The notes under the pieces are model-generated. The model was not told the DNA's origin. It was given only the letters and a program-made list of their open reading frames with translations, and searched no databases. The position numbers were made by a program, and so were the translations under genes. This document shows positions 1-6,410 of a stretch of DNA of 6,759 nucleotides, piece after piece. Location: the IMG/VR virus record IMGVR_UViG_3300012155_000195; one strand, written 5' to 3'. How positions within the stretch are numbered: the stretch's first letter is position 1; each line of letters starts with the position of its first letter. The DNA is from a virus (taxonomy: Duplodnaviria; Heunggongvirae; Uroviricota; Caudoviricetes).

Positions 1-249
1 AACTGCAGTCAGTGAACCGATAAGCGTAGCAAACGTCGCTGAAAACACCGCCATCGTCAATGAATGCTGAGCTGCCTGCAACAGACTGTCGTTGTTCATC
101 AGCAGGCTATACCATTTAGTGGTAAAACCCTGCCAGTTGATGCCAAAGCGCGAGCTGTTGAAAGAGTTCACAATCAAAATAATGATTGGAATATACAGGT
201 ACGCGTAGATAGCGGTCATAAAACCGCCGCGAAGCAGTCGACCGATCAT
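1..249 (-). CDS. potC: Spermidine/putrescine ABC transporter permease PotC, N-terminal 83 codons (partial, runs off window at position 1)
   Basis: Minus-strand ATG at 249-247 preceded by AAGGTGGA RBS. Translation MIGRLLRGGFMTAIYAYLYIPIIILIVNSFNSSRFGINWQGFTTKWYSLLMNNDSLLQAAQHSLTMAVFSATFATLIGSLTAV matches my recollection of E. coli PotC N-terminus; hydrophobic TM1 present. About 50% GC, unlike adjacent AT-rich DNA. Not in the supplied ORF track because it is truncated by the window edge. Confidence 0.8.
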   Translation of the reverse strand, partial: MIGRLLRGGFMTAIYAYLYIPIIILIVNSFNSSRFGINWQGFTTKWYSLLMNNDSLLQAAQHSLTMAVFSATFATLIGSLTAV

Positions 250-352: not shown

Positions 353-551
353 CAAGCCATGCATTCTACAGTATTTTCATTTATGCACGAATCTTACTAT
401 CCATTGACAATATTACTATTTTATCAAATCAAGTCATGCGGTTAGTGAACTTTGTGTGTTCGTTTTTTGTTCATTTACGATGATGATACTGACAATAGTG
501 GCTAGCTACGCAGGCATATAGAACAAATTAAAATCAATTTCAAGGAATTTA

Positions 552-580
552 TTGACGCTCTTCACGTTTTGTATGATACT
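552..580 (+). promoter_or_regulatory. Putative sigma70 promoter for the ATPase-TOPRIM operon
   Basis: TTGACG (552-557), 17-bp spacer, GATACT (575-580; 4/6 to TATAAT). About 30 bp upstream of the ATG at 611, which has a GGA-containing RBS at 599-603. Confidence 0.3.
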
Positions 581-610
581 AAATTCAACTTCCAAAAAGT
601 GGAAATAATT

Positions 611-1804
611 ATGATTTTTACTAGATTGAAATTTGTAAACCTTTGCGCATTTTCTGATGCAGAATTAAACCTTTCATTTCCCAGAAAGCTGGTTAACTCA
701 CCAATTGATGGTGAATTTTTGTTCGGGAGACCGAAGTTTTATTATCGCAAAGTATGTATCCTCACTGGAGCTAATGCTTCGGGAAAGACTTCCCTTGGTC
801 GTATGTTATGGGGGATTCAGCTTTTCTTGTCCCGGAAAAATTTGTATCAATCAGCTTTTCCTGTAAATGACAAAACCAAGAGTGCTTCCTTTGAGGCAGA
901 TTTTGCAACGGAAGGATTTTTGCATCATCGTATTTTCGTGAAGTTTAGATCCGATAAGTCTGGAACATATTTAATAAGTGAAGTTAAATACGCATCCGTA
1001 TTTATAGGAGAAAATGACTCTTGTGTCAAAACAACAAGAAAATTGGACAGAGTATTTCAAGAGTCAGGTCAGTATATTGCGAATAGCTATTACCATGCAG
1101 TGGCTGCTGATGGGGAATCTGTTTCTTTAGAGAATTTCAAGAAAAATGTGTTTCTTGGTGGATGGTATTATTTATTATCAAAAACAAAGGAAGAAACAAC
1201 AGAAATCTCTGGTTTAGATAAGAATATATTAGAACTTATCATGAAAACCTTTGATCCTAGTATAAAATCAGTTCTTGAATTAAGGGAAAATGATGGTGAA
1301 GAAAATGATAAAGATGTGTTAACGGGGTTTTCTATTCGTTTTCACAATAATGATAATGTTATTGTAACTAACTCTGGAGAAGTTGCTAATTGTGATCGGC
1401 TTTCACGTGGTACATACGATGCTGTAAAATTATCTCATTTTATTAGTTCTATAAATAGTGATTATATGGCATCGTCTGAAACAAATAATATAGCATGTAT
1501 GCTCTATTTTCTTGACGAAAGCATGGCTTATGTTCACTCAGAACTTGAAAGAGCTATCATAACTCTTATTATATCTAAATTGAAGATTAATAGTCAATTT
1601 TTCTATACAACGCATAATTGCGATATTTTTAAATTGGATTTGCCCATTCATTCGTATATTTTCATAAAGAAAGAGCATGATAGCTCAGTATTTGTAGATG
1701 CAAGTGAAATTCTTAAAAAGAATGACAGGAATTTAGCTAAATATGTTGAGAATGATGTTTTTGGTGTTCTTCCCGATTTGTCTTTGATTGAGGCGTTAAT
1801 ATAA
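611..1804 (+). CDS. ABC-type P-loop ATPase (AAA_21/AAA_15-like, OLD/AriA/AbiLi-like ATPase component), 397 aa
   Basis: ORF-track ORF 569..1804; I prefer ATG 611 (RBS 7 nt upstream) over the TTG at 569. Walker A GANASGKTS (767-793), signature-like LSRGT (1400-1414), Walker B MLYFLDE (1499-1519), H-loop TTH (1607-1615). About 200-aa insertion between Walker A and signature. Visibly AT-rich codon usage. Stop TAA overlaps the next ATG. Confidence 0.85.
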   Translation: MIFTRLKFVNLCAFSDAELNLSFPRKLVNSPIDGEFLFGRPKFYYRKVCILTGANASGKTSLGRMLWGIQLFLSRKNLYQSAFPVNDKTKSASFEADFATEGFLHHRIFVKFRSDKSGTYLISEVKYASVFIGENDSCVKTTRKLDRVFQESGQYIANSYYHAVAADGESVSLENFKKNVFLGGWYYLLSKTKEETTEISGLDKNILELIMKTFDPSIKSVLELRENDGEENDKDVLTGFSIRFHNNDNVIVTNSGEVANCDRLSRGTYDAVKLSHFISSINSDYMASSETNNIACMLYFLDESMAYVHSELERAIITLIISKLKINSQFFYTTHNCDIFKLDLPIHSYIFIKKEHDSSVFVDASEILKKNDRNLAKYVENDVFGVLPDLSLIEALI

Positions 1805-2346
1805 TGTCAAAAAATCAGAACGCAAAAATTATTTTTGTTGAAGGTGAAACAGAGTATGCCTTGTTTCAAAAGATGAAGCAAAAAGGTTTGATTAAATTCA
1901 AAAAAATTGTCAAGAAGAATTTTTGGGTTGATGATATAAAGAAATATGCAGTTAACATACCTAAAAATTGTGATTTAATAGTTGTTTTTGATAGTGATGT
2001 TATTGATAGAGTTGATAGATTTATTCAGAATGTTAATTACTTAGCAAGCAGAAAACATTCGATTTTTTTATTGCAACAGACCAGAAATTTCGAAGAGGAA
2101 ATCGCGTATTGCTGCTCTGTAACTTTAAATAAATTGATCGCTTCGTTTTGTAAATGCAAGACATCTGGAGTTGCAGATTTTAAGCGAGATTTTATATCTT
2201 CATCTAATCCTTTTGATAAGCTAGTGGCTTTAGGAATTAACCAGGATAAGTGGTTCAAAAGGGAGTTACATCATTCATTGTTAAGTTTATCAAAGTATAA
2301 ATCAGATTTTTCAACATATTTTAATGCGGATGTTATTAATTTATGA
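1804..2346 (+). CDS. Small TOPRIM-like putative nuclease (DUF4435 / DUF4276 / RloB-like effector component), 180 aa
   Basis: ATG at 1804 overlaps upstream stop (TAATG), indicating translational coupling. N-terminal KIIFVEGETE (E13 at 1840-1842, E15, E17) and LIVVFDSDVID (D63 at 1990-1992, D65 at 1996-1998) match the TOPRIM glutamate and DxD signatures. GAGG RBS at 1790-1793. Confidence 0.8.
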   Translation: MSKNQNAKIIFVEGETEYALFQKMKQKGLIKFKKIVKKNFWVDDIKKYAVNIPKNCDLIVVFDSDVIDRVDRFIQNVNYLASRKHSIFLLQQTRNFEEEIAYCCSVTLNKLIASFCKCKTSGVADFKRDFISSSNPFDKLVALGINQDKWFKRELHHSLLSLSKYKSDFSTYFNADVINL

Positions 2347-2369
2347 TATCTGTGTACTAATGTTATTCG

Positions 2370-2434
2370 TTACTATGGGAGAATTTCATTGTGCTGCTAA
2401 GAAATACAAAGCATAGTAAATCTCCTATTCTCCC
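2370..2434. repeat. Interleaved inverted repeats in the convergent intergenic region between the TOPRIM gene and int
   Basis: ttactatg (2370-2377) pairs with catagtaa (2412-2419); gggagaat (2377-2384) pairs with attctccc (2427-2434). No GC-rich stem plus T-run typical of an intrinsic terminator. Confidence 0.25.
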
Positions 2435-2526
2435 ACATAAGTTAAACGACAGTGCAAGTTTAAATTCGAATCATACTATCAGTATACCTTCAAGATGGCA
2501 ATTATGTTTTTATGGCAAATATCTTA

Positions 2527-3645
2527 TTAAATAACCAATTTAACCCATTCCTGACCACGAGTATCGTTATAACGATCGGTGGTTGCCTGGACTTTATGTC
2601 CCAGTAATGTTTTTGTATCAATACCCTGCGCGCGGTACAGTCGTTCTGACAGGGAGCGTTGTTCATGAAATGTTGGCGGAGTTTTTCCTGCTGGTGGAAT
2701 TATCCCTGCCAGATCCCGTGCTTTGGCAAAGTAGTCGCTCAGGTTGTCTTTACTCATCGGCTTTGGTTGTTTCTGGTGCCGACTATGGATTAGATATGGA
2801 CTTAATATTCTGTCTCGGCACCCATCAATAACTTCTTTTAACGTTATCCCAATGGCATCACAGCGTAGTGTAAGCGGTAACGCCAGACGCATTCCGGTTT
2901 TTCCCTGGGTGATATGCAAGTGTTCGTTCCACACATCTGAAAAACGCATGTGGCAAATGTCATCACGGCGCTGACCAGTAACAATCGCAAGAAGCATTGC
3001 GTTACGGATAAAGTGTTTTTCAGGCGTTGCGTTGTAAATTTTTTGCCAGTCTTCCAGGGTGAGTCTGGCTCTGGTTACTTTAGGGATCGGTTTACGGGTA
3101 GCCTCCGGAGGATTCCATCCAGGAGGAACTTCCCCTGCATGCTGTGCTTCTTTATAAATATCAACCCATAATCCACGATTTACTCTCGCTGTGCTGACCA
3201 TGTCTTTATCCAGCCACTCATCCAGTATTAATGCAAAGTCTCTTACTTCCAGTTCTTTCAATGGGTGGTTTCCCAGACGGGAAACCAGGTATGCAGCCAT
3301 TCGGGCTTTTTCTTTGTGAGTTGTAGCTGCAATATCTCCATTTTTCAGTCGCGTGTCCTGTATTTTCAGATATCGATCAACCCATGCCTTTAATCTGATA
3401 CCCCGACGTTTTGTTGCTGACGGACTTTCATCAATTTTGCGCATGAAATATTCAGCTTCTGCTGCAGCTATTCGCTGATTGGCTGTGGAAGCGATTTTTT
3501 CTGCCTTACCTTTGTCTGTTCCGAGTCCGTGAAATTTTCCAGTCACAGGATTTTTATACTGGTAGTAAACTCTGCCAGTTCTGCGATCAAACTTTTCGTA
3601 AAGACCAGCTACGTCAGTGCTGTTTTTTCGTGGCCTCGGTGACAT
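2527..3645 (-). CDS. int: Lambda-family tyrosine integrase (site-specific recombinase), 372 aa
   Basis: Clear collinear similarity to lambda Int by recall: N-terminal arm-binding region (YYQYKNPVTGKFHGLGTDK vs lambda YCYRDPRTGKEFGLGRDR), catalytic motifs TGQRRDD (Arg), QGKTG (Lys), TFHEQRSLSERLY (His/Arg), LLGHK (His), TDRYNDTRGQEW (Tyr nucleophile). AAGGAGA RBS 9 nt upstream of the ATG at 3645. Confidence 0.95.
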   Translation of the reverse strand: MSPRPRKNSTDVAGLYEKFDRRTGRVYYQYKNPVTGKFHGLGTDKGKAEKIASTANQRIAAAEAEYFMRKIDESPSATKRRGIRLKAWVDRYLKIQDTRLKNGDIAATTHKEKARMAAYLVSRLGNHPLKELEVRDFALILDEWLDKDMVSTARVNRGLWVDIYKEAQHAGEVPPGWNPPEATRKPIPKVTRARLTLEDWQKIYNATPEKHFIRNAMLLAIVTGQRRDDICHMRFSDVWNEHLHITQGKTGMRLALPLTLRCDAIGITLKEVIDGCRDRILSPYLIHSRHQKQPKPMSKDNLSDYFAKARDLAGIIPPAGKTPPTFHEQRSLSERLYRAQGIDTKTLLGHKVQATTDRYNDTRGQEWVKLVI

Positions 3646-3883
3646 GAGTTAAAATCTCCTTCAGTGCATCATCATCGCCAGTATGAATTTCCGGCGCAAT
3701 TCCCGTTTCACCAGGTCCAACAAATACTGCTCGGCGATCTATCAGCCAACGCCCACGAATTTTTTGTGGCCTTGGAACGATGTATCCTAGTTTTCCGTAT
3801 TTCACCAGGGTAGTGTTTGTTATTGGGAGACTGAACCGTTTTGGTTTCCACTCGTCGAGCGTTATCAGGTACTGTTCGCTCAT
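3614..3883 (-). CDS. xis: Excisionase (Xis-like recombination directionality factor), 89 aa
   Basis: Immediately upstream of int and overlapping it by 32 nt, as in lambda. N-terminal MSEQYLITLDEW resembles lambda Xis MYLTLQEW. Start chosen at ATG 3883 (GGAG RBS) rather than the GTG at 3892 used by the ORF track. Confidence 0.8.
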   Translation of the reverse strand: MSEQYLITLDEWKPKRFSLPITNTTLVKYGKLGYIVPRPQKIRGRWLIDRRAVFVGPGETGIAPEIHTGDDDALKEILTHVTEATKKQH

Positions 3884-3944
3884 GGCTATCACTCCGGAAC
3901 GCGCCAGTTGCAGAATACCAACGACAACTGGCGACGGTTGAACA

Positions 3945-6410
3945 TTAAAAATCAGCCTGACTCGGGATCAGTTTTTGCCAGATAGCTGAAACGTATTTTG
4001 CCTGGTAACGGGCGTCATCAAGTGCATTGTGGCGCACCCCTTCGAACGGAATAGCCGTTCTGGCATCGAAGTCTATGGCTTTCCCCAGCTCAACGATTGT
4101 GCGTACATCGCGATCGTTGGACCAGCGCCACGGGCAGGGGATACCATGTCGCTCATATGAACGGCGTAAAATCACGTTGTCGAAGTTGGCTCCATTCCCC
4201 CAGACCCGGACAAAAAATTCACCGGAGTTTTCGTCGATAAATTCCCGCAGTTGCAGCAGTGCATCGTCTAACGGGATTTGATTTACCAAAGTTGCAGATC
4301 TGGCCTCGCTGGACTGTGCCAGCCACCATTCGATGGTGGAACCATCAGGAACAGCACCTTTGTCCATTGCGTCAACTAGGCTGATGACAACATAAAATAT
4401 TGGTCCAATTTCTCCGGTCTGCGGATCGAAAAATATTGCACCTATTGAGATGATCGGGGCATCTGGATTTTTTCCCATGGTTTCAAGGTCGATCATCAGA
4501 TGGTGCCACACCCTGCTGGTGGATGTGATTTGGTGATGACCGTTCATATTAATTAAGGGATCTGTCGCCTCGCCAGTTTCATTATCGCTGGCGTGATGCT
4601 GATTGCCGCCAGGGTTCTCCTTGTGTGGATGTTCAGCGCCTTCCATTTCCTCTGGATCATTTTCCTGAACTTCAACCTGATTCTCTTCATCGAATGTTTC
4701 CTGGTATGTTGCAGCGCCCATCACCGCGCCACAATCAGGGCAGTTGTCACCGCCGGTCTGACCGCAGGCGGTGCAGACTTTTTCCGCTTCCTGTTGCGCT
4801 ACTGGCTCAGGTTGTTTCGTTTCTGGCTCGTTTTGTAACGCATTTGGGCTGTTGTGTTTCGCTTTCTGGTCGTTCTGTTCCGTTTCTTGCTGGTTCTGGT
4901 TCACTGAATCGCGGGGGTCAATCCCCTTCACCCATTTCGGATCATTCGGGTCGCTAATCCCTGCAACAAATTCACCGCGAGAGGCAGCAAGCAACTTATC
5001 GGCGTCAGGCTGGCTGATATTGGCTGCCTGCATAATTTTGTTTACTTCGTCAGCGGTAACTTTTACCTGATTAACTGGATCTACCTGTTTCTGAGTATCC
5101 AGCGATTGCGTGTCCTGGCGATGTTCAGTTGTATCCGGTTCCATTGTTTCAGCCGTTGCCTGTTCATCTGCCATTGCGTCAGACGGTTGTGATTTTTCCT
5201 CATTATTTTTTTCTTCTTCTGTTTCGCGTTCAGCAGCCAGTTCGCGGTTAACTTCTTCCAGGATATCTTTTTCCGGTGTATGTCGTGCAGCAGCGAGAGT
5301 TTCCTCGGTAGGGTTCTCGTGATCAGTCTCTGTTAAATAGGCGTTAATATACCCCTGAAGGCGCCCCGGGTAGTGATAAAACTCAGGGTGTGCGCTTCGG
5401 ATAAGTGCAAAAATAGCGGCACGGGAATAATCCAGAATACCCGGGGTTGAGCGAAGTGCTGCGGACCATTCTTTGAACGGACTTTCTTTCTTCCGGACGA
5501 CTTCTTTTGCGCGACGATAAACGCTGCCCGGGATTTCATAAATATTAAAATCCATCGGAAGTGTGGCCGCTGCAATCTCCACATCCAGCGTATCGAGGGT
5601 GTGCACTAAATTCGGATTGCGATCGGTTTTGTTCCCGCCGCCAGCATTAGCACCGGAAGCCGTGCGGGTGATGCGTGAAACACGATTCCCCTTCATCCAC
5701 TCTTTTGTAAGCAGACCGCGATCGGTGTAGTCAGTGTCAAGGTATGCTTCGATGAAAGCAGTCATCACCCCCAGTTCTGAATTTACGGGGGCGGGAAAAA
5801 CACTGCCAGTATCCCGAACCAGTTTGTATAAATCCCGAATCTCCAGTGGCTCCAGTTGAGCTGCTTTATTTGAAATGGCACGGATTGTAACTGCAGGGAG
5901 TTCCTCATCCAGCGCACTATGTAATGCCCGAAGTTCTTCCCGTGAAACGTGCGTTACTGGTTTTTCGTTGCCGCGTTGAGCAAGCCAGCGAATGGGCAGC
6001 TCCTGACCGGAAACCGGCAGGAGCATGTTCTCCTCAATCTCTGTCATTTCTTCGCCGTTGACGTTGGTATTGTCAGTGCTGGCTGGTTTGTCCTGAACAG
6101 AGGGGGAGGGCGCGATAAGTACCATTGTGATACCATCTTCCCCGCCTTTTTCGTATCGGTTGCAGAATTCGGTATCAAACACGCCTTCCGGAGGAAGGTC
6201 ATTCACAACGGGTAAATGGACGCGAACAGGTTTTTTAAAATCCTCTTCGTCAAATCCGGCATCGTCCATTGCGACAACACCGCGTGATATTGCAACCGAT
6301 AATTTTTTTGCTGTGCGCCAGTAAAAACCGCCTTTAATCCCAAGGCGTTTTCTGACTTTGTCATTTTTGGCTTCGTAATATAGTGCAATTTCTTCTTTAT
6401 CAGTGCTCAT
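3945..6410 (-). CDS. Exodeoxyribonuclease VIII-like mosaic protein with acidic linker, zinc-ribbon-like CxxC..CxxC motif and C-terminal DnaQ-type DEDDh 3'-5' exonuclease domain, 821 aa
   Basis: Long ORF with GAGG RBS upstream of ATG 6410. C-terminal domain has Exo I MIDLETMG (D641 at 4488-4490, E643 at 4482-4484), Exo II GNGANFD (D744) and Exo III HNALDDARYQAKY (H794, D799; 4014-4031). CTACG..CPDCG at residues 546-560 (4731-4775). Glu/Asp/Gln-rich low-complexity regions around residues 360-440 and 500-620. The N-terminal ~350 aa resemble prophage exonuclease VIII (RecE-family) N-terminal regions by recollection only. Confidence 0.85.
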   Translation of the reverse strand: MSTDKEEIALYYEAKNDKVRKRLGIKGGFYWRTAKKLSVAISRGVVAMDDAGFDEEDFKKPVRVHLPVVNDLPPEGVFDTEFCNRYEKGGEDGITMVLIAPSPSVQDKPASTDNTNVNGEEMTEIEENMLLPVSGQELPIRWLAQRGNEKPVTHVSREELRALHSALDEELPAVTIRAISNKAAQLEPLEIRDLYKLVRDTGSVFPAPVNSELGVMTAFIEAYLDTDYTDRGLLTKEWMKGNRVSRITRTASGANAGGGNKTDRNPNLVHTLDTLDVEIAAATLPMDFNIYEIPGSVYRRAKEVVRKKESPFKEWSAALRSTPGILDYSRAAIFALIRSAHPEFYHYPGRLQGYINAYLTETDHENPTEETLAAARHTPEKDILEEVNRELAAERETEEEKNNEEKSQPSDAMADEQATAETMEPDTTEHRQDTQSLDTQKQVDPVNQVKVTADEVNKIMQAANISQPDADKLLAASRGEFVAGISDPNDPKWVKGIDPRDSVNQNQQETEQNDQKAKHNSPNALQNEPETKQPEPVAQQEAEKVCTACGQTGGDNCPDCGAVMGAATYQETFDEENQVEVQENDPEEMEGAEHPHKENPGGNQHHASDNETGEATDPLINMNGHHQITSTSRVWHHLMIDLETMGKNPDAPIISIGAIFFDPQTGEIGPIFYVVISLVDAMDKGAVPDGSTIEWWLAQSSEARSATLVNQIPLDDALLQLREFIDENSGEFFVRVWGNGANFDNVILRRSYERHGIPCPWRWSNDRDVRTIVELGKAIDFDARTAIPFEGVRHNALDDARYQAKYVSAIWQKLIPSQADF

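Follow-up and report, generated by a model that had tools for sequence, protein, structure and literature searches.

The stretch of DNA analysed here (the window, 6,759 nt, IMG/VR virus record IMGVR_UViG_3300012155_000195) carries on its plus strand a gene for an AbiLi-like ABC ATPase and, directly behind it, a gene for a TOPRIM-like partner protein. Both genes lie in a cassette of low GC content within a lambdoid prophage of Escherichia coli. We put at about 80% the probability that the ATPase is a compact, arm-less enzyme of the Rad50/SMC/RecF type forming an AbiL-like prophage-cargo module with the TOPRIM-like protein, and that the approximately 200 residues between its Walker A and signature motifs are the normal body of an ATPase head. 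A first-pass annotation of the ATPase gene had taken these residues for an insertion. The features and their positions are listed in Table 1.

Sequence motifs of the ATPase

The ATG at position 611 was taken as the true start of the ATPase gene rather than the TTG upstream at position 569, because all homologues start at MIFTRL. The first-pass annotation had numbered residues from the TTG; the numbers used below are counted from the ATG and are 14 lower. Nucleotide coordinates of the motifs were verified by translation. Once the numbering is converted, all four motifs stand where they had been placed, and their key residues were invariant in 52 homologues with 35-74% identity (G53, N55, G58, K59, T60, S265, G267, T268, D302 and H335). 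In the same set the Walker B block was conserved at D302 (52/52), E303 (51/52), H309 (47/52) and E313 (52/52), and positions Q329, Y332, T333, T334, H335 and N336 of the H-loop block were all invariant. The order Walker A, signature, Walker B (D-E), H-loop is kept, which is the order of an ABC ATPase of the Rad50/SMC/RecF/OLD type.

The Pfam family AAA_15 matched the ATPase with 33.9 bits (cut-off 32.1). AAA_21 was aligned over residues 50-336 with profile positions 3-299 of 304, at 24.7 bits, slightly below its cut-off of 27. The strongest match to a named system component was to the PADLOC profile AbiLi (PDLC02335; E 1.4e-24, 84.8 bits), which was matched by all 52 relatives as well (best E 5.3e-32). 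Weaker profile matches were obtained for mad3, AriA (AAA_15/21 models) and PtuA. The PHROG families matched by the ATPase (5836) and the partner (10204) are both of unknown function, and neither protein had a meaningful match in NCBIfam.

From the end of Walker A to the start of the signature there are 203 residues in the window ATPase, 96 in E. coli LolD (a transporter ATPase encoded a few kb away in the same genome), 231 in E. coli RecF and 224 in P2 Old. Thus the spacing does lie far above that of transporter ABC ATPases, as had been noted from the sequence, and at the same time it is normal for the class. Among 76 ATPases with a recognisable Walker A at loci from other species, 74 have an [LF]SxGT motif 168-241 residues past Walker A, with a median of 189. 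The variants seen in the family are LSSGT, LSKGT, FSRGT and LSRGT.

The family profile (residues 248-334) was aligned by hhalign with E. coli RecF (residues 254-331) at 91% probability, pairing RLSRGT with TLSRGQ, LYFLDE with LYLIDD and SQFFYTT with SQVFVSA. A global alignment, at 88% probability, spanned almost the full length of both proteins and stopped at residue 360. The local alignment with P2 Old had a low probability (9.6%) and was consistent in its motifs (RLSRGT with RFGHGT, FLDEsMAYvHS with FIDEPELYLHP, QFFYTTHN with QVIISTHS); the global hhalign comparison with the N-terminal 380 residues of P2 Old gave no alignment. The motif assignments agree with both RecF and P2 Old. Given the residues invariant in the 52 homologues and the 74 of 76 ATPases from other species, the motif pattern and spacing are real rather than due to chance. 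The view that LSRGT is divergent does not survive this comparison: LSRGT is an ordinary [LF]SxGT variant of the family and is matched by LSRGQ in RecF and FGHGT in P2 Old. As judged from these alignments, both LSRGT and the approximately 200-residue spacing are class features of ATPases of the RecF, OLD and AAA_15/21 types. The practical lesson is that such a spacing, together with a signature of the LSxGT or LSRGQ type, is typical of RecF/OLD/AbiL-type ATPases and is no signal of novelty.

Predicted structure and variability of the region between the motifs

The ATPase was modelled by AlphaFold2 on the 52-sequence alignment. The model had a mean predicted local distance difference test score (pLDDT) of 88.9 and a predicted template modelling score of 0.89, and secondary structure was assigned by DSSP. 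The P-loop helix comprises residues 59-75. The region that follows it (residues 76-263, pLDDT mostly 85-97) consists of eight beta-strands and two helices only (138-150, 13 residues; 204-214, 11 residues). Neither a coiled coil nor a helical dimerisation domain is present in this region of the model, which has no helix longer than 13 residues. This is at odds with the coiled-coil or dimerisation insertion proposed from the sequence. Searches of Pfam, PADLOC and PHROGs for a known unrelated enzymatic domain in the region showed no second domain there, and that possibility was rejected.

Lobe assignments were inferred from the order of secondary-structure elements in the model. The three long strands at residues 92-131 are taken to form the beta-meander that makes up lobe I in heads of the Rad50/SMC/RecF type. 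A short strand (159-164) is followed by the conserved strand GWYYLLS, whose W185 is present in 49/52 sequences. The helix 204-214 ends in a conserved TFDxSI (D215 invariant, F214 and I218 conserved in at least 90%), and strand 249-253 is the sole element of the region aligned directly with RecF, where its counterpart is the strand ahead of the RecF signature. In our reading of the model, residues 204-263 correspond to the helix-plus-three-strand unit found ahead of the signature in SMC, Rad50 and RecF heads. The loop 189-203 would then sit where Rad50, SMC and AriA send out their coiled coil, its putative equivalence to the Q-loop and coiled-coil exit being one of position. At the spot expected for the Q-loop, just after strand 184-188, S190 was present in 40/52 sequences and E/D191 in 39/52. 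The window ATPase itself carries K191, which is atypical for the family. The fold is that of a Rad50/SMC-type head, closer to such heads than to transporter nucleotide-binding domains, and on the strength of the model an arm-less protein appears to be a better description of the ATPase than a protein with an insertion.

One segment of the region, the indel-rich patch 151-183, stands out by its variability. It has a column entropy of 3.3 bits. Its mean pairwise identity was 0.32 among relatives at least 55% identical (0.53-0.76 in other segments) and 0.11 over all 52 sequences (0.23-0.58 elsewhere). By these alignment measures it is the only strongly fast-evolving part of the supposed insertion. 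The patch lies between lobe I and strand 184-188, roughly at the position of AriA insertion sequence 1 (residues 122-180), for which a role in trigger recognition was proposed (PMC11464382). By analogy, it is plausible that the patch serves as a sensor or partner-binding site; of the whole region proposed for that role, the data favour this piece only. The most conserved family-specific element lies outside the Walker A-signature region. It is the C-terminal motif 369-390, situated past the part matched by RecF, with R373 and P388 invariant and K370, N371 and D372 conserved in at least 90% of the 52 sequences. The motif may be where the partner docks, though this is a guess.

Partner protein, family spread and prophage setting

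The TOPRIM-like protein belongs to a family of 348 clusters at 50% identity; near-full-length members are about 145-195 aa long, and all relatives fall within 74-195 aa. It matched PHROG 10204 with E 2.3e-63. Among 80 diverse members of the family the PADLOC profile AbiLii was matched by 59 (best 1e-7), Pfam OLD-like_TOPRIM by 11 (best 1.1e-6), RloB by 7 and DUF3226 by 4. For the window partner the OLD-like_TOPRIM match had E 0.01, below the cut-off. No match to DUF4435 (PF14491) was found in the partner at E 0.1 or better, nor was this domain among the top families of its 80 relatives. Residues E13, G14, D63, D65, E97 and K127 were invariant in the 80 sequences, and E99 was conserved in at least 90%. 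The model of the partner (pLDDT 94.3) is an alternating beta/alpha domain that puts the acidic residues where the four-stranded parallel sheet of a TOPRIM domain would have them: E13 follows beta-1 (8-12), beta-2 comprises residues 34-37, D63xD65 ends beta-3 (57-63) and E97 follows beta-4 (86-92). We take this layout of acidic residues in the model to be the TOPRIM arrangement. Fold searches with the partner returned generic Rossmann-like folds and no significant TOPRIM match. The active-site motifs of both proteins are strongly conserved.

Pairing of the ATPase with a TOPRIM-type partner, as suggested by the first-pass annotation, holds up well. The two genes overlap by 1 nt in the window, the partner has the invariant residues of the TOPRIM type, and of 72 loci from other species with enough downstream sequence, 61, in several phyla, have a partner gene directly behind the ATPase gene in the same orientation. 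At one more locus (L059) the partner is truncated and retains VEGEDE and FDTD. The genes are translationally coupled and co-inherited across phyla. Fusions of the two proteins were absent among 177 ATPase hits and 348 partner clusters. Some members of the ATPase family may have a different partner or need none.

ATPase relatives are 363-432 aa long, except for a few truncated entries. Their hosts (loci L012-L089) include Gamma- and Betaproteobacteria, Bacillota (many of them gut Lachnospiraceae), Fusobacteriota, Spirochaetota, Bacteroidota, Campylobacterota, and symbionts of mussels and sponges. This range of taxa indicates that the ATPase family has spread widely by horizontal transfer. The homologue from Citrobacter is inside a prophage, with tail genes on one side and regulatory genes on the other. 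In a P2-like prophage of Klebsiella michiganensis the pair (48% identity; L009 / L010 6001-7758) is flanked by the portal gene Q and the replication gene A and thus occupies the old/tin position of P2; a defence hotspot in P2-like phages was described by Rousset et al. (PMC9122126). Further copies were found in a temperate Acinetobacter phage, on a small Acinetobacter plasmid, and on an Acinetobacter chromosome beside another ATPase pair. These contexts fit horizontally mobile anti-phage cargo. The homologous pair of Acinetobacter bereziniae has, 2.5 kb away and beyond an IS element, another and different ATPase (461 aa, AAA_23/AAA_21) with a 144-aa gene downstream of it (L003 8769-10588), and the region looks like a small defence island.

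The window is a piece of the E. coli chromosome, with the 5' end of potC at its left end. Prophage-free genomes match the window only within positions 1-271, so the lambdoid prophage starts at approximately 271, at the potB/potC boundary. A sister prophage occupies this site in E. coli O104:H4. It matches positions 1-370 and 2529-4109 and has 47 bp between the two matches; therefore positions 371-2528 form a discrete cargo cassette. Its GC content is 31.8%, compared with about 47% in the flanks, and it is carried by 9 of 5,426 complete E. coli genomes. The Rfam scan gave nothing, and scans of the cassette for repeats, promoters and terminators gave matches at the chance level only.

The 180-aa gene and the integrase gene are convergent, with 181 nt from stop to stop and no terminator-like site found between the stops. 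The excisionase gene shares 32 nt (3614-3645) with the integrase gene. In the 821-aa exonuclease the N-terminal region is of the ExoVIII (RecE-like) type, the C-terminal part is an Rv2179c-like 3'-5' exoribonuclease domain (E 3e-68), and a long acidic linker of low complexity lies between the two. The listed open reading frame of 139 aa at the left end matched no family, and it is almost certain that this is no gene.

Table 1. Features of the window, in nucleotide positions, and of the ATPase, in residues counted from the ATG at 611 (first-pass numbers, counted from the TTG at 569, in brackets)
Feature	Position (nt)	Strand	Residues	Remarks
potC, 5' end	1-249	-		Piece of the E. coli chromosome
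Listed open reading frame, 139 aa	64-483	+		Antisense to the potC 5' end, extends into the prophage end
Low-GC cargo cassette, 2,158 bp	371-2528			From the prophage end to the integrase gene; holds the ATPase and 180-aa genes
AbiLi-like ABC ATPase gene, 397 aa	611-1804	+	1-397	ATG start
Walker A, GANASGKT	767-790	+	53-60 (67-74)	
Three long beta-strands	884-1003	+	92-131	92-99, 104-114, 120-131; read as lobe I beta-meander
Hypervariable, indel-rich patch, 33 residues	1061-1159	+	151-183	pLDDT 71-91
Conserved strand GWYYLLS and loop	1160-1219	+	184-203	GWYYLLS 184-190 (model strand 184-188), then loop of about 15 residues, 189-203
Helix and three strands	1220-1399	+	204-263	Helix 204-214, strands 218-227, 235-244, 249-253; read as lobe II unit leading to the signature
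Signature, LSRGT	1400-1414	+	264-268 (278-282)	At the N-terminus of helix 266-290
Walker B, LYFLDE	1502-1519	+	298-303 (312-317)	Followed by conserved MAYxHSELE
H-loop, TTHN	1595-1618 (block)	+	333-336 (347-350)	Within the QFFYTTHN block, residues 329-336
Family-specific C-terminal motif, KKNDR...NDVFGxLPD	1715-1780	+	369-390	Past the RecF-matched region
TOPRIM-like partner gene, 180 aa, AbiLii-like	1804-2346	+		ATG overlaps the ATPase stop by 1 nt (TAATG)
Lambda-type prophage integrase	2527-3645	-		Pfam Arm-DNA-bind_1 E 3.7e-21, Phage_integrase E 2.1e-18; RefSeq annotation in a near-identical genome
Excisionase gene	3614-3892	-		
Prophage exonuclease, 821 aa	3945-6410	-		
DUF1482 gene		-		In the prophage part of the window

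Interpretation and comparison with named systems

In the first-pass annotation the approximately 200 residues were an insertion, either a coiled coil or a dimerisation element, of the kind found in SMC, RecF, OLD and AriA, acting as the sensor or partner module and holding the novelty of the protein. There are reasons to think so: the two motifs are twice as far apart as in a transporter ATPase (203 vs 96), the patch 151-183 is hypervariable, and at this place AriA, Old and GajA have helical insertions with a trigger-binding or oligomer-locking role (PMC10802264, PMC11464382, bioRxiv 10.64898/2026.07.10.737580, PMC10568477). However, the high-confidence model fills residues 76-263 with eight strands and helices of at most 13 residues. 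Moreover, conserved family residues lie on helix 204-214, the pre-signature strand of RecF is aligned with strand 249-253, only about 15 residues (189-203) are left at the inferred coiled-coil exit, and the spacing is below the values of RecF and Old. With this balance of evidence we regard an insertion as very improbable, and prefer to see in these residues the head body itself.

The function of the pair allows other explanations as well. It is unlikely that the two genes are a toxin-antitoxin or addiction module stabilising the prophage, or an accessory of phage repair or recombination, with no defence role against other phages. Two small overlapping genes on a mobile element, next to the recombination genes int, xis and exonuclease, would suit such a role; PARIS behaves like a toxin-antitoxin pair (PMC10802264), and the closest structural relatives of the ATPase (Rad50, SMC, RecF) are DNA-repair ATPases. 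Against this, the best profile matches are all to defence components (AbiLi, mad3, AriA, PtuA), one relative stands at the place of old/tin in a P2-like prophage, the cassette, as optional cargo, is missing from the sister prophage and carried by few genomes, and a hypervariable surface patch is compatible with an arms race. It is also quite improbable that the 180-aa partner is a non-catalytic Rossmann-like adaptor or regulator, with the ATPase or another host factor as the effector. The invariant E13, D63, D65 and E97 are at the positions expected for TOPRIM metal binding in the model, and relatives of the partner match AbiLii, OLD-like_TOPRIM and RloB, whereas the generic results of the fold searches and the below-cut-off OLD-like_TOPRIM match of the window partner would agree with an adaptor. 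The ATPase-TOPRIM pair is a probable anti-phage defence module.

Several observations weigh against the AbiL-like reading of the pair. Between Walker A and the signature, no conserved Q-loop glutamine was found in the family alignment. Solved structures searched by sequence (with the ATPase alone, its 52-sequence profile and the partner profile) gave no significant match, the hits being P-loop matches and a weak one to 1t6t at E 0.17. The window partner matched AbiLii over a short stretch only (E 5e-4, 18.7 bits), and the likeness to the Lactococcus AbiL prototype is drawn from PADLOC profiles only. No partner was detected downstream of the ATPase at 11 of the 72 loci (L073, L075, L081, L084 and L086 among them), several of which are from Succinivibrionaceae. 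Finally, a literature search for both RefSeq protein accessions returned no papers.

If the pair acts as an AbiL-like defence module, its mechanism may be pictured as analogous to those of PARIS, P2 Old and Gabija (PMC10802264, PMC11464382, PMC12409363, PMC12445682, bioRxiv 10.64898/2026.07.10.737580). The ATPase would dimerise with ATP sandwiched between one subunit's Walker A and the other's signature, and these dimers would keep the TOPRIM nuclease in check or act as its gate. On a cue from the phage, perhaps recognised by the patch 151-183, the ATPase would change its state. The nuclease would next cleave nucleic acid of the host or the phage (tRNA, as for AriB and Old, or DNA), and the infection would be aborted. 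The PARIS trigger binds at the coiled-coil interface, and the lock of Old is its helical dimerisation region (PMC10802264, PMC11464382, PMC12409363, PMC12445682, bioRxiv 10.64898/2026.07.10.737580); the sensing surface must differ here, because neither a coiled coil nor a helical dimerisation region is predicted.

Hence we tentatively propose, while considering it doubtful, that the pair is a minimal immune module of an arm-less ABC ATPase and a TOPRIM protein which senses infection in another way, with the patch 151-183, next to the nucleotide-binding core, as the candidate surface, and controls the 180-aa effector (approximately half the size of AriB), perhaps via the tail 369-390. If true, the OLD/AbiL/PARIS superfamily would include an activation mechanism of a separate kind, and the pair would be a very small, tractable E. 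coli model. Modules of an ABC ATPase and TOPRIM (Old, Gabija, PARIS, AbiL, RloAB, MADS) are among the most widespread anti-phage systems. Trigger and target are known for only some of them, and for the AbiL type neither is known. A small copy (397 + 180 aa) in a tractable host could reveal how a bare ATPase head detects infection. The residual interest of the locus is the arm-less architecture with its small hypervariable patch.

Among the named systems, AbiL, PARIS, RloAB and MADS are recognised as ABC ATPase plus TOPRIM systems (PMC11464382, PMC10802264, PMC13064643). With PARIS (AriA + AriB) the module shares a split ABC ATPase and TOPRIM effector, location in phage-related elements and the Pfam families AAA_15/21. 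AriB is a 35-kDa DUF4435 protein, whereas the partner here has 180 aa, and the detection rule for PARIS defines the partner by DUF4435, PF14491 (Rousset et al., PMC9122126). Since the partner has no DUF4435 match, the module is not PARIS, and membership in that system was rejected. The four-helix coiled-coil bundle of AriA builds the hexamer and binds Ocr (PMC10802264); these coiled-coil helices are not predicted in the window ATPase, so trigger sensing in the manner of PARIS would be impossible.

The ATPase clade and the pairing with TOPRIM are shared with the OLD nucleases (P2 Old, Thermus OLD, GajA of Gabija, the OLD protein of retron Eco8). AriB and P2 Old are tRNases (PMC12409363, PMC12445682). 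OLD proteins, however, are single polypeptides with a helical dimerisation region inside the ATPase, and in our case this region is not in the model. Because separate genes code for the ATPase domain and the TOPRIM domain, the window ATPase is not a strict OLD-family protein. RecF is similar in its near end-to-end alignment, in its near-identical signature LSRGQ and in length (357 vs 397 aa). Unlike RecF, Rad50 and SMC, the window ATPase has no coiled coil, hinge, zinc hook or helical arm and no link to Mre11, kleisin or RecOR, and unlike their heads it has an additional conserved tail at the C-terminus (361-397) and is paired with a TOPRIM protein.

Of the named systems, the one that comes closest is AbiL (AbiLi + AbiLii), whose mechanism is unknown and which was noted as structurally distinct from PARIS (PMC10802264, PMC13064643). 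An "extension" was described at residues 250-323 of the lactococcal AbiLi (PMC13064643), and a comparable helical extension is not seen in the window ATPase. A search for the lactococcal AbiLi on plasmids with a Blautia relative as a query gave a weak match to a 608-aa ATP-binding protein of L. garvieae and no pair, and was dropped. The vehicles differ too, a lambdoid prophage of E. coli here and a lactococcal plasmid for AbiL. What the two have in common is a two-gene operon on a mobile element, in which an ABC ATPase of the AAA_15/21 type is followed by a TOPRIM-like protein of approximately 180-200 aa. The module is an uncharacterised prophage-borne case of a known type and not a new architecture.

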